From contig CAUJCN010000002.1 in assembly GCA_963169855.1 (NCBI GenBank), positions 775,608-817,811 on the forward strand: a stretch of DNA of 42,204 nt, written 5' to 3'. The translations under genes and the position numbers were made by a program. The notes below the pieces were generated by a model, which made no database searches, had not been told where the DNA came from, and saw nothing but the letters and a program-made list of their open reading frames with translations. The DNA is from Patescibacteria group bacterium. GTDB taxonomy: Bacteria; Patescibacteriota; Dojkabacteria; J137. Below are positions 36,721 through 40,170 of the stretch, piece by piece. The first letter of the stretch is position 1. Each line of letters starts with the position of its first letter.

Positions 36721-36729
36721 TGATAGAAT
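36721..36729 (+). promoter_or_regulatory. Extended -10 leaderless promoter
   Basis: TGA-TAGAAT-N7-ATG(36737). Confidence 0.6.
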
Positions 36730-36736
36730 GAATCTT

Positions 36737-37996
36737 ATGAAAAAGAAATATTTGATTGCTCTGGGCATTATTACTATTGTTACATTGTTAGTAATAGTTG
36801 CAGGCATAATCATACTCGCTTCTCGGAAGGAACAAAACATTAACATTCCAGATACTACTTCAAACACAATTCCAGATGAAGAAACTCCAGCAGATGAAGA
36901 AGAACCCGAAGACGAAACTCCACAACAACCACAAACACAAGAAGTGGATCCTTCAATAATTCTTCCTGATTTCGAAATTACAACAGTTGTAGGAGGACTT
37001 GATCATCCTTGGGATGTAGATTTTCTTCCCGATCAAACTATGTTGTTTACACAACGAGGAGGATCTCTAAGCGTGTTTAGAAATGGCTCAACAATACATA
37101 CTTTCGATTTTGAAGATGCATATTCACGAGGGGAAGGAGGAGTTTTAGGATTAGCAGTTGACCCGGAATATTCTAGAAATAATTACGTTTACGTCTGTTT
37201 AAATTCTTCTAGGGGAGCAAATCCAGAAATCAGGGTTGTCAGATTAAAATTGAATTCGGCATTGAACAATATAGACGAGCGAACAGACATAGTAACGGGC
37301 ATGCCATCTGCTGATGGAGGAAGACATTCAGGATGTCAAGTTGAATTTGGAAACGATGGTTATTTATGGGTAGGAACTGGAGATAGGGCTGTGGGTTCAG
37401 AACCACAAGATCCAGTGAGTTTAGGTGGCAAGATTTTAAGGGTGAATCGAGACGGTCGCGCGATCGAAGGAAATTTAGGCAGCCCTTATGATTCAAGAAT
37501 TTTCTCTTACGGTCACAGAAATGTTCAGGGACTACTATTTTTCCCTACGAATTTAGGATTTAGTTTCGAAGGTTTTAGTATAGAACAAGGTCCAGACATG
37601 AACGACGAAATTAATATTCTTCGACCAGGAAACTTTGGATGGAATCCAATCCCAGGATACAACGAATCCGTTCCTATGACAGATAAATCGCTCTACCCTA
37701 ACGCTTTTGACGCAATGTTTGAGAGCGGCAGTAGAACTTTCGCATTATCAGGAGGAACCGTTTTAGTTGGAAATGTTTGGGGAAATCTGCAGGGAACAAT
37801 TGTGGCAGGGGCTTTGAAAGATGAGAAATTAACTTTTGTAAAAGTTAATCGTGACGGAAGTTATTTAAGTACAATCAATGCATTCGAAGGTCAATTCGGC
37901 AGGATAAGAACTGCCCAGATTGGACCGGATCAAGCTTTATACTTACTTACAGATAATGGGGGTAATGACTCAATTATACGAATGATGCCAAAATAA
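36737..37996 (+). CDS. Membrane-anchored PQQ-dependent sugar dehydrogenase (glucose/sorbosone dehydrogenase family)
   Basis: N-terminal TM and acidic linker; LDHPWDVDFLPD, GEGGVLGLAVDP, HSG...FGNDGYLWVGTGD, GKILR, YGHRNVQG, GRIR. Confidence 0.88.
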   Translation: MKKKYLIALGIITIVTLLVIVAGIIILASRKEQNINIPDTTSNTIPDEETPADEEEPEDETPQQPQTQEVDPSIILPDFEITTVVGGLDHPWDVDFLPDQTMLFTQRGGSLSVFRNGSTIHTFDFEDAYSRGEGGVLGLAVDPEYSRNNYVYVCLNSSRGANPEIRVVRLKLNSALNNIDERTDIVTGMPSADGGRHSGCQVEFGNDGYLWVGTGDRAVGSEPQDPVSLGGKILRVNRDGRAIEGNLGSPYDSRIFSYGHRNVQGLLFFPTNLGFSFEGFSIEQGPDMNDEINILRPGNFGWNPIPGYNESVPMTDKSLYPNAFDAMFESGSRTFALSGGTVLVGNVWGNLQGTIVAGALKDEKLTFVKVNRDGSYLSTINAFEGQFGRIRTAQIGPDQALYLLTDNGGNDSIIRMMPK

Positions 37997-40170
37997 TGAA
38001 GACAAAAGTACTCTTGTTTATCAATGCTGTGTTGTTCTCTGTCGCTGTATTGACTTTGCGAGTTCAAGCAATTCCGGACTACGAGTTAAGAATTCTGACT
38101 GTTGAAATCAATCCAGTTGAAAATGGGCAGGATCTTGTTAGTACTTATTTTGGAGGAAACGCGGAAGCGATAAAAGACGAGGCCTTTGGTACAGCAATAG
38201 ATGCTTTTTATGATTTCTCAGCAGGAAAAATTCATTACGAAATTGTTGACGAACTTGTAATCGATGAGTTCCCCGAAGTGAATGACGGTACACCAGCCTT
38301 CACCTTTGAAACTTATGACCGTTGCGTTGGACCGATGACTGCAGATGACTACACATTCTGCGATTCCAGGAAATATGCTTTTGACTATATAAAATTTTTC
38401 AATGATTACGAAATTTGTCAGGCAGCAAATAGTGCTGATGTAGATGAGATTTGGATTATTGGTGCACCTTACGTAGGAATTTACGAAAGTTTTATTATCG
38501 GACCTGAAAGTTCATTCTTTATTAACGGTCCTGACTTTATTAATACAAATTGTCATAAGCTATATCCTGCTTTAGGTCCAACTTGGGATAGACCTGAGAA
38601 TTTGCTCCATAACTACAGTCATAGAATTGAATCCACTCTGGCATATATTTTTAGCAACGTTAACGTTACCCAAAGAAATCAATATTTCTCTAGATTTGTT
38701 GGATTCGATGGTCAACCTAGAAGATGTGGTAATGGTCACTTTCCTGTGAACGCTAGAGGTGAATACGATGTTTCTAACCCAGCAAATGGAAGATTTTATT
38801 GTGTAGACTGGAGAAACTTTCCAAATCATACCAATACTAGTGTATTGATCGGTTGCTCTGCATGGGGATGTACAGATGCAGGTTGGCAGGAATTCTGGTT
38901 TAGTTATGTGCCGAGAGAGGATGGTACCGCAAATCTTTTAAATAGATCCGGTCAAACAATTGAAATTTCCAGAAATTGGTGGGAATACATTCTTTCTCCT
39001 GTAACAGCTAAGGAATTTGTAAGGAATTCATATGAACCAGGATCCGAACCCCCAGAGTGTACAGTTTTAGAATGGTCAGATTGGTCTGTCTGCACTGGAG
39101 AACAACAAACACGTACTGCCCTAAGAACTACACCTCTTATCTGTTCTGATTATGGCGGTTTAGAAGAAACTAGAAGCTGTCCTGGTTGTTTCAACTATAC
39201 ATACAGCGACTGGGGAGAATGCGTTGATGGAGTTCAATCTCGTACTTTCGAAGAAGCTCCGGCGTACTGCCCGGGAGAAACACTAGAAGACTTGACACAG
39301 TCTTGCGTAGTAGAACCACCAGTTTGTACAGTAACAGAATGGTCGGATTGGTCTACTTGCATTGGTGGAGAACAGTTCCGAACTGCAGTAGAAACCGATC
39401 CAGCATCATGTATACCAGATGAAGATACAGAAACACGATCTTGTACAGAAGAACCACTATGCACCGTTTCAGTTTGGTCGGATTGGAGCGAATGCGAAAA
39501 CGACGAACAATTCAGAGTAGCTTTAGAAACAGATCCAACCTTATGTACTCCAGACGAAGACACAGAAACAAGATCTTGTGTATCAGAACCACCAGAATGT
39601 AACGTAACAGAATGGTCAGAATGGTCTGATTGTCTAGATGGGAATCAGTTTAGAACTCCAATAGAAACAAATCCTGCAATGTGTACTCCAGATGTAACTT
39701 CTGAAGCACAATCCTGTACTTGTACAATCTACGAATACTCAGCTTGGGGAGCTTGTTTAAATGGAACACAAACCCGAACCTATATAGAAGACCAAGGAAG
39801 TTGTCCAGGAAATACTTTGGAAGAACTATCAAGAAGTTGTACAGTAACTCCACCGGTCTCTACTCCAGTTTCGACACCAACTACAACAAATCCTAATAAC
39901 AACACAACAACTAATTCTGCAACTTCAGGAGCAAATACAGCAAACAATAATCAAACTGTAGTTCCAGTGAGTTCGCCGATTGTAGTTAAACCACCAATAA
40001 GTAACGGAAACAACAACTCACCGACTGGTCAAACACCAAGCACACCTGGAGAGCAACCACAAGAAGAGCAAGGTTCTAGCAATACAGCAGTAACTGTAGC
40101 AATAGTCGGAGCAGTTGTAACTTCGATGGGGGCAGGAACATATTTCTTCTTCTTTAGAAAACCTTTCTAA
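37996..40170 (+). CDS. Surface protein: signal peptide, globular domain, six TSP1-like repeats, P/T/N stalk, C-terminal TM
   Basis: MKTKVLLFINAVLFSVAVLTLRVQA signal; C-x4-(W/Y)SxW-x2-C...R..C...C repeats; TM AVTVAIVGAVVTSMGAGTYFFFF followed by RKPF. Confidence 0.9.
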   Translation: MKTKVLLFINAVLFSVAVLTLRVQAIPDYELRILTVEINPVENGQDLVSTYFGGNAEAIKDEAFGTAIDAFYDFSAGKIHYEIVDELVIDEFPEVNDGTPAFTFETYDRCVGPMTADDYTFCDSRKYAFDYIKFFNDYEICQAANSADVDEIWIIGAPYVGIYESFIIGPESSFFINGPDFINTNCHKLYPALGPTWDRPENLLHNYSHRIESTLAYIFSNVNVTQRNQYFSRFVGFDGQPRRCGNGHFPVNARGEYDVSNPANGRFYCVDWRNFPNHTNTSVLIGCSAWGCTDAGWQEFWFSYVPREDGTANLLNRSGQTIEISRNWWEYILSPVTAKEFVRNSYEPGSEPPECTVLEWSDWSVCTGEQQTRTALRTTPLICSDYGGLEETRSCPGCFNYTYSDWGECVDGVQSRTFEEAPAYCPGETLEDLTQSCVVEPPVCTVTEWSDWSTCIGGEQFRTAVETDPASCIPDEDTETRSCTEEPLCTVSVWSDWSECENDEQFRVALETDPTLCTPDEDTETRSCVSEPPECNVTEWSEWSDCLDGNQFRTPIETNPAMCTPDVTSEAQSCTCTIYEYSAWGACLNGTQTRTYIEDQGSCPGNTLEELSRSCTVTPPVSTPVSTPTTTNPNNNTTTNSATSGANTANNNQTVVPVSSPIVVKPPISNGNNNSPTGQTPSTPGEQPQEEQGSSNTAVTVAIVGAVVTSMGAGTYFFFFRKPF
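39058..39840 (+). repeat. Six thrombospondin type-1-like repeats
   Basis: CTVLEWSDWSVC, CFNYTYSDWGEC, CTVTEWSDWSTC, CTVSVWSDWSEC, CNVTEWSEWSDC, CTIYEYSAWGAC; four Cys per unit. Confidence 0.8.

Follow-up and report, generated by a model that had tools for sequence, protein, structure and literature searches.

A Dojkabacteria surface protein with six reduced thrombospondin type-1 repeats behind a head domain of zincin-like predicted fold

The subject of this analysis is a 42,204-nucleotide stretch of DNA, here called the window, from a Patescibacteria group bacterium of the Dojkabacteria (GenBank assembly GCA_963169855.1, contig CAUJCN010000002.1, positions 775,608–817,811 of the forward strand). 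Near its end, the window encodes a cysteine-rich surface protein as a single 724-residue open reading frame (ORF) on the plus strand (positions 37996–40170, translation 37996–40167, genetic code 11). The protein carries six tandem repeats that are reduced, four-cysteine thrombospondin type-1 repeats (TSRs), homologous to the TSR superfamily and not captured by Pfam, and these follow an N-terminal head domain for which a zincin-like fold is predicted. The original prediction for this locus, a bacterial adhesin with six thrombospondin-like repeats in a TRAP-like layout, was drawn from positions 39058–40170, which is the C-terminal half of the ORF only; nucleotide 39058 is the first base of the codon for Cys355, with which repeat 1 begins. 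The signal peptide and a conserved 327-residue head (residues 1–352 together, nearly half of the protein) were overlooked. Of the 32 cysteines of the protein, eight lie in the head and the other 24 in the repeat region, where every repeat has exactly four.

The six repeats occupy residues 355–617, and each comprises 41 to 46 residues with four cysteines, a [W/Y]SxW motif, and one invariant arginine, as originally described. Alignment and profile scoring delimit repeat 1 (residues 355–397, 43 residues, positions 39058–39186), repeat 2 (residues 398–443, 46 residues, 39187–39324), repeat 3 (residues 444–488, 45 residues, 39325–39459), repeat 4 (residues 489–534, 46 residues, 39460–39597), repeat 5 (residues 535–575, 41 residues, 39598–39720), and repeat 6 (residues 576–617, 42 residues, 39721–39846), all on the plus strand; repeats 3 and 4 were also modeled together. 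Nine positions (C1, S7, W9, C12, Q17, R19, C29, S40, and C41) are invariant in all six copies, and position 6 is Trp in four copies and Tyr in two, with repeats 2 and 6 forming a Y-S-x-W-G subtype. The copies are 31–55% identical to each other at the amino acid level, and no DNA-level tandem repeat was found at the gene; the copies are therefore old and diverged, and it is their protein sequence that has been maintained. A profile of this repeat type scored each of the six copies at E = 1e-17 to 1e-19 in a search of the organism's own 1.06-Mb genome and gave no match elsewhere in that genome, so the array is real and beyond chance.

The relation of these repeats to TSRs was assessed by profile comparison, structure prediction, and structure searches. 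The Pfam models that the original prediction had pointed to do match the repeats, and both matches fall below the gathering cut-off: the score was 26.0 bits for TSP1_spondin (PF19028), whose cut-off is 41, and 14.3 bits for TSP_1 (PF00090), whose cut-off is 21.6. A phmmer search of the repeat region (residues 355–620) against 5.8e9 proteins gave 58 matches, with a best E-value of 1e-40; most of these carry Pfam TSP_1 or TSP1_spondin domains, and one is an oomycete protein annotated as “Spondin-like TSP1 domain-containing protein.” A second class of bacterial repeats, found in P0005, P0007, P0010, and other proteins, has the same four-cysteine framework, an RTRT motif, and a longer loop, and is recognized by TSP1_spondin at about 40 bits per repeat. 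In hhalign comparisons, the profile of the short, window-type class matched this long four-cysteine class (P0005, P0007) with a probability of 97.9% and E = 4e-13, and matched canonical six-cysteine TSRs with a probability of 97.2% and E = 3e-11. The long class, in turn, bridges to TSRs of solved structure at E = 2e-8 to 7e-4, including those of C8alpha (2.4e-8), C7, MIC2, and F-spondin, and also R-spondin and C9. When the short-class profile was searched directly against PDB sequences, only four weak matches were obtained, all to members of the TSR superfamily (MIC2, midkine, TRAP-related protein, and isthmin).

The AlphaFold2 model of repeats 3 and 4, built on a 33-row alignment of tandem pairs, has a mean predicted local distance difference test score (pLDDT) of 87 and shows three strands per repeat (repeat positions 2–6, 16–25, and 35–39). 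Foldseek searches with this model returned TSR-bearing chains as all of the best 16 PDB matches (C6, C8, C9, thrombospondin-1 [1LSL], and Sema5A TSR3-4), and TSR1 of F-spondin (1szl) aligned with a root mean square deviation (RMSD) of 2.7 Å over 52 columns. With E-values of 0.02 to 8, these Foldseek matches are weak, which is to be expected of a domain of only 45 residues. The model thus bears out the TSR-like fold, and the three independent lines of profile homology, AlphaFold2 model, and Foldseek matches together identify the repeats as a distinct, shorter, four-cysteine variant of the TSR, as the original prediction had suggested they might be.

The closest counterparts of known structure are group-2-type TSRs, such as those of F-spondin, TRAP/MIC2, and C6–C9, with which the window repeats share a predicted elongated three-strand fold and tandem occurrence in extracellular proteins. 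The features that have been kept are the Cys just before the Trp motif, the WxxW motif on strand A ([W/Y]-S-x-W in all six repeats), the QxR(T) motif on strand B (invariant Q17 followed by the single invariant R19), the loop Cys between strands 2 and 3, and the ETRxC motif on strand C. The features that have been lost are the Cys of the CSxTCG motif, the last, C-terminal Cys, and the second Arg, whose position is occupied by A, F, P, Y, or V; each repeat therefore has four cysteines and not the six, forming three disulfides, of canonical TSRs. Where three-Trp TSRs have their first Trp, the window repeats have an aliphatic residue. In contrast to group-2-type TSRs, the window repeats have one Arg and not two or three, a shorter loop between strands 2 and 3, a total length of 41–46 as opposed to about 50–55 residues, and a strongly acidic composition, and they lack an O-fucosylation or C-mannosylation context. 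Cys1–Cys3 and Cys2–Cys4 are the likely disulfide pairs within each repeat, and the side chain of the single Arg probably stacks between both aromatics of [W/Y]SxW.

Could an unrelated cysteine-rich bacterial module have converged on the WSxW…R pattern without being homologous to TSRs? The Pfam scores below the gathering cut-offs, the presence of only four Cys and one Arg per repeat, the weak Foldseek E-values, and the tendency of short Cys-rich repeats to inflate similarity scores would all agree with such an origin. We nevertheless regard convergence as highly improbable, given the continuous chain of matches that runs from the short class to the long class and on to TSP1_spondin and solved TSRs, the fact that all four weak PDB sequence matches and the fold matches are TSRs, and the strand-C motif that is common to both.

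The window repeats also belong with an unnamed class of four-cysteine TSR-like repeats in bacterial and Candidate Phyla Radiation (CPR) proteins (P0012, P0016, P0031, and P0057), whose consensus is CTSWTYSDWSxC..GQQTRT...P.GC.GG.P.L.QSC. These repeats have the same Cys framework, length, and motifs, and likewise occur in multidomain proteins that are secreted, where they separate enzymatic or binding domains from anchors. They differ from the window repeats, which are far more acidic (−15 as opposed to about 0 charges per 100 residues) and which are joined to a different head domain. Several of the CPR-type proteins, including P0012 and P0031, have two C-terminal copies of a motif of about 45 residues (...GEGWYVYP....KYYLGRPADAF.IMR.LGLGI...) that has no Pfam match and may be a wall- or cell-binding module. 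The long four-cysteine class (CVVSEWSxWSxC..GxQTRTRTVITPAxNGGxxCPxLxETxxC, recognized by TSP1_spondin) was also observed on at least 30 IMG/VR contigs of 4–121 kb (L027–L056), so viral contigs too carry repeats of the thrombospondin type.

The head domain (residues 26–352, positions 38071–39051, plus strand; eight conserved cysteines) had no Pfam, NCBIfam, or PDB sequence match. When 1.84e9 proteins were searched with a profile built from four head sequences, 1,788 clusters at 50% identity passed E ≤ 1e-3, and 396 of these also passed E ≤ 1e-30. The AlphaFold2 model of the head, built on a 32-row alignment, has a pLDDT of 95.1 and a predicted TM-score (pTM) of 0.92. Nearly all of the top 50 PDB matches obtained for this model with Foldseek are metzincin catalytic domains, with match probabilities of 0.75–0.99; they include ADAM17/TACE, ADAMTS1, ADAMTS4, snake-venom metalloproteinases, and 6o38, which we take to be Acinetobacter CpaA. 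A viral structure library, searched with the same model as a negative control, gave nothing above a probability of 0.21. The order of secondary structure elements in the model is b1-aA-b2-(helices)-b3-b4-b5, followed by a helix carrying H205, H209, and E212, and this order matches the topology of the zincin fold. The long helix, which ends the central sheet (domain residues 175–193), carries the most conserved motif of the head family.

In the window protein, this motif reads H205-N-Y-S-H209-R-I-E212-S, and its near-invariant form in the family is [H/E]xxGHRxE. Among 154 aligned family members, H209 and E212 are each conserved in 151 and R210 in 138, and position 205 is His in 115 and Glu in 36, both of which are able to bind metal. 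Further conserved residues are H248, within the motif CGNxH[FY]PxN (151/154), and E164 and N177 (150/154 each). The fold and these residues make a zincin-like predicted fold with a non-canonical metal site plausible for the head. Other members of the head family are fused to CBM60, CBM96, PA14, LamG, dockerin, and FN3/Ig domains and to a subtilase. Such partners are commonly seen with extracellular degradative enzymes, and they leave room for a carbohydrate-active function too.

Several observations weigh against a zincin-type assignment. The fold matches to metzincins are weak in absolute terms, with TM-scores of 0.19–0.45, RMSD values of 6–11 Å, and E-values of about 1e-3. The head lacks the catalytic Glu of HExxH, and the position following the first His, 206, is variable (N, D, S, I, V, and T are listed for 143 of the 154 members); the head is therefore not a canonical zincin. 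The family alignment contains no conserved Met downstream of the helix that could provide a Met-turn. A sequence-level link to a peptidase family was found neither with Pfam at E ≤ 1 nor by the profile search of PDB sequences: across 32 family members Pfam gave scattered noise only, no Reprolysin-type match was seen there or for the whole protein, and the one PDB match of the head profile, to cytochrome c3 (E ~0.2) on the CGxxH motif, was dismissed as chance. Finally, a carbohydrate-active enzyme would be equally compatible with the large number of Trp, Asn, Tyr, and Glu among the invariant residues and with the carbohydrate-binding module (CBM) partners in the family.

This last point leads to an alternative in which the head is a new carbohydrate-active enzyme (a glycoside hydrolase, lyase, or esterase) or a non-catalytic, lectin-like domain, and its likeness to adamalysins a partial alpha/beta similarity. 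CBM60, CBM96, PA14, LamG, and dockerin are typical modules of carbohydrate-active enzymes, and the invariant positions are rich in Trp (W153, W290, W328, and W329), Asn, Tyr, and Glu, as sugar-binding sites are; the low TM-scores and the absent HExxH point the same way. We consider this alternative quite unlikely, however, as the top 50 fold matches, nearly all of them metzincins, include no glycosidase, and as the helix bearing [H/E]xxGHRxE corresponds in topology to the active-site helix of zincins. Moreover, CBMs are also carried by glycoprotein-specific zincins.

The remaining parts of the protein place the head and the repeats outside the cell. Residues 1–25 form a signal peptide (MKTKVLLFINAVLFSVAVLTLRVQA / IPDY; positions 37996–38070, plus strand), read from the sequence, with a basic n-region, a 17-residue hydrophobic core, and a VQA cleavage-type site; it contains no lipobox Cys and is the most hydrophobic window in the hydropathy profile of the 724 residues. 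The repeats lie C-terminal to the head, from which two residues separate them, and are followed by a low-complexity stalk of 78 residues (residues 618–695, positions 39847–40080, plus strand; T15, P13, N13, and S11), identified by composition and presumed to span the wall. A transmembrane helix (residues 698–720, AVTVAIVGAVVTSMGAGTYFFFF, positions 40087–40155, plus strand) and a four-residue cytoplasmic tail, RKPF, with a TAA stop codon (positions 40156–40170, plus strand) complete the protein, both read from the sequence. The stalk, helix, and tail agree with the original description. Four relatives (P0002, P0004, P0064, and P0065) have the same type of C-terminus, a hydrophobic stretch and then a basic tail. 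Sorting by sortase, LPXTG, or PEP-CTERM-type signals was considered and set aside in favor of plain transmembrane anchoring, because no such motif precedes the C-terminal helix. These features support the view that the protein is a Sec-exported, C-terminally anchored type-I surface protein of a CPR bacterium. Other searches with the whole protein gave only matches that were dismissed: among PDB sequences, a nanobody and LpqN, the latter a low-complexity match of the kind to which the hits of the stalk were confined, and in NCBIfam a spurious 19.7-bit match to ScmF that was attributed to the Cys-rich repeats.

Thrombospondin type-1 repeats are textbook eukaryotic adhesion modules, and the original prediction accordingly proposed a host-attachment adhesin, with glycosaminoglycan (GAG) binding as the established activity of such repeats. 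The composition of the array does not favor this activity. The repeat region contains 51 Asp and Glu residues and 11 Lys and Arg residues, giving a net charge of −40; each repeat has one to three basic residues, one of which is the buried core Arg. With this charge, binding of GAGs or heparin by the repeats is unlikely. C-mannosylation at WxxW, also raised originally, is a eukaryotic modification and is not relevant in this bacterium.

The number of repeats varies among relatives that share the head domain, which have 1, 2, 2, 4, 4, 6, and 9 copies. The orthologue P0002, with a head 80% identical to that of the window protein, has four repeats and lacks repeats 4 and 5. P0106, a more distant head relative of 1070 residues, has nine TSR-like repeats and weak, below-cut-off matches to EF-hands; it may be an independent or older case of the combination of head and TSRs. 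The same repeat type is also located between trypsin-like peptidase, beta-helix, or other domains and anchors in unrelated bacterial proteins. The net charge, the copy number of 1–9, and the use of the same repeats to link other catalytic domains to anchors suggest that, in this context, the TSRs mainly serve as a spacer or ancillary module and not as a GAG-type adhesin.

An adhesin function in another form has to be weighed against this spacer role, namely that the six repeats are themselves functional and bind the surface of the epibiont's bacterial host, with the head as an accessory or second binding domain. Such a role would be in line with the established function of TSRs as adhesion modules in thrombospondin, properdin, and TRAP/MIC2, with the surface display conferred by the signal peptide and C-terminal anchor, and with the lifestyle of cultivated Saccharibacteria, which are obligate epibionts. 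It would also fit the distribution of the gene. Of 301 genomes sampled evenly across the phylum, 12 contained the head domain and six (~2%) the window-type repeat, and none had a Pfam TSP1_spondin match above the cut-off; one genome of the same family is without the head domain. This taxonomic spread, proposed as a check in the original prediction, is patchy, and the gene is therefore accessory, a pattern that is typical of host-specific surface factors.

On the other side, the acidic array offers no basic face, which would rule out the classic heparin/GAG mode, and bacterial hosts have no GAGs. Whole repeats have been inserted or deleted between close orthologues, and elsewhere the same head is joined to unrelated targeting modules (dockerin, CBMs, and LamG), so that the head, and not the TSRs, is the conserved unit. 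Literature searches yielded no ligand for any bacterial TSR and found no paper tying thrombospondin repeats to bacteria or CPR. Taken together, these points make the adhesin role doubtful, and we favor the spacer role in what follows.

The layout of the protein invites comparison with two eukaryotic designs. Like the ADAMTS and ADAM proteins (M12B), the window protein has an N-terminal domain whose closest predicted fold is that of ADAM17, ADAMTS1, and ADAMTS4; it has tandem TSRs after this domain, as in ADAMTS, and a membrane anchor, as in ADAMs. Unlike them, its head has no HExxHxxGxxH motif (HNYSHRIES is found instead) and no conserved Met-turn, and the protein has no prodomain and no disintegrin-like, Cys-rich, or spacer modules, nor any Pfam Reprolysin match at E ≤ 1. 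By this comparison, the likeness to ADAMTS/ADAM is confined to architecture and does not make the window protein a family member. The TRAP-like layout proposed originally holds in the order of parts: TRAP and MIC2 also have a signal peptide, a globular head, one or more TSRs, a low-complexity stalk, a single transmembrane helix, and a cytoplasmic tail. It is a loose analogy in other respects. The head is not a vWA/I domain (there is no Pfam vWA match), six TSRs are present as opposed to one in TRAP, and the four-residue tail, unlike the longer, acidic, motor-binding tail of TRAP/MIC2 with its subterminal Trp, cannot couple to the cell interior or engage a motor. The bacterium also has no such gliding machinery. 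Since HExxH is missing from the ADAM-like head, the layout can be called ADAMTS-like or TRAP-like by analogy only.

The genome that carries the gene is 1.06 Mb in size and about 97% complete, and genomes of the same phylum range from 0.7 to 2.1 Mb. The identical 724-residue protein occurs on five contigs, at least two of them from different samples. Directly upstream is a gene for a 422-residue beta-propeller protein of the glucose/sorbosone dehydrogenase (GSDH) type (positions 36728–37996, plus strand; Pfam GSDH, E = 3.4e-67) with an N-terminal transmembrane segment and an acidic, Pro-rich linker, and its stop codon overlaps the start codon of the TSR gene by 1 nucleotide (TAATG). The closest relative of the TSR gene, with a head 80% identical, is on a contig labeled “uncultured Candidatus Saccharibacteria bacterium” (L023). 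In this Ca. Saccharibacteria metagenome-assembled genome (MAG), synteny extends over a 151-residue ORF (55% identity), the GSDH-like gene (69%), and the TSR gene (71%); the GSDH–TSR gene pair is kept there and not in the Dojkabacteria relative L024. More distant relatives of the head are found in Dojkabacteria, Parcubacteria, and one MAG labeled “uncultured archaeon.” The latter homologue, on L026 (CAYZVE010000029.1), has 36% identity, and could reflect a misbinned contig, a DPANN-type archaeon, or horizontal transfer. A scan of genome contigs with the undivided repeat region yielded 26 pattern matches, of which not one was confirmed, and no convincing terminator or promoter signal was found around the TSR gene.

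The proposal of a disulfide-rich CPR secretome fared well, with the CPR source supported and a disulfide-forming system encoded in the same genome. This system consists of DsbB (64 bits, C1:115541–115903) and a DsbA-like protein (42 bits), an intact copy of which is located at C2:369557–369955; VKOR was not found in this genome. The presence of DsbB and a DsbA-like protein makes extracytoplasmic disulfide formation plausible. Another DsbA-like match (Thioredoxin_4, C2:68055–68564) contains in-frame stops (one TGA and two TAA) and may be a pseudogene.

These data can be combined into a working model in which a putative metallohydrolase head is held off the cell on a disulfide-stapled TSR stalk, a proposal that we judge to be evenly balanced between right and wrong. 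After export, oxidation of the DsbA/DsbB type would introduce two disulfides per repeat, and the six repeats would form a stiff, very acidic rod. A TSR is about 4–5 nm long, and at this length the rod would measure roughly 25–30 nm. The flexible T/P/N/S linker would cross the wall, so that rod and linker together would display the head beyond the envelope, some tens of nanometers from the membrane. The head would be the working end, predicted to act as a metal-dependent hydrolase via [H/E]205, H209, E212, and H248, or at least to serve as a ligand-binding head; E164 would lie close to the edge strand that binds the substrate. The target of the head would be a polymer, such as a glycoprotein, wall, or exopolysaccharide, of a host or partner cell or of the surroundings. 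The TSRs would mainly be a spacer whose length is set by copy number, with possible secondary contacts like those of the ancillary TSRs of ADAMTS.

A bolder extension of this model would make the protein a bacterial counterpart of the ADAMTS design. Here, the 1,788 or more clusters, for which Pfam has no model, would make up a new and widespread family of metallohydrolases that act outside the cell. Its fold would be zincin-like, its metal site would be the non-canonical [H/E]xxGHRxE...H, and it would include a Saccharibacteria/Dojkabacteria subfamily in which ancillary TSRs position the enzyme on, or target it to, the surface of a partner cell. We offer this extension as speculation and consider it unlikely. 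If it were true, the combination of a metalloprotease with TSRs, thought to be an animal invention, would have arisen, or been exchanged, in episymbiotic bacteria too.

What is new here is a very acidic, six-copy TSR array joined to a head whose family is large, lacks a Pfam model, and has a predicted fold like that of ADAM/ADAMTS. Reduced four-cysteine TSRs that go undetected by Pfam are a building block of the surface protein of an ultrasmall episymbiont, and such repeats can be extremely acidic and variable in copy number, which points to a structural stalk and not to the GAG binding that is assumed by analogy. Should the head prove to be an enzyme with the host cell surface as its target, the protein would be a concrete, testable candidate for a role in the interaction between Saccharibacteria and their hosts, and its head would also define a new family of hydrolases.

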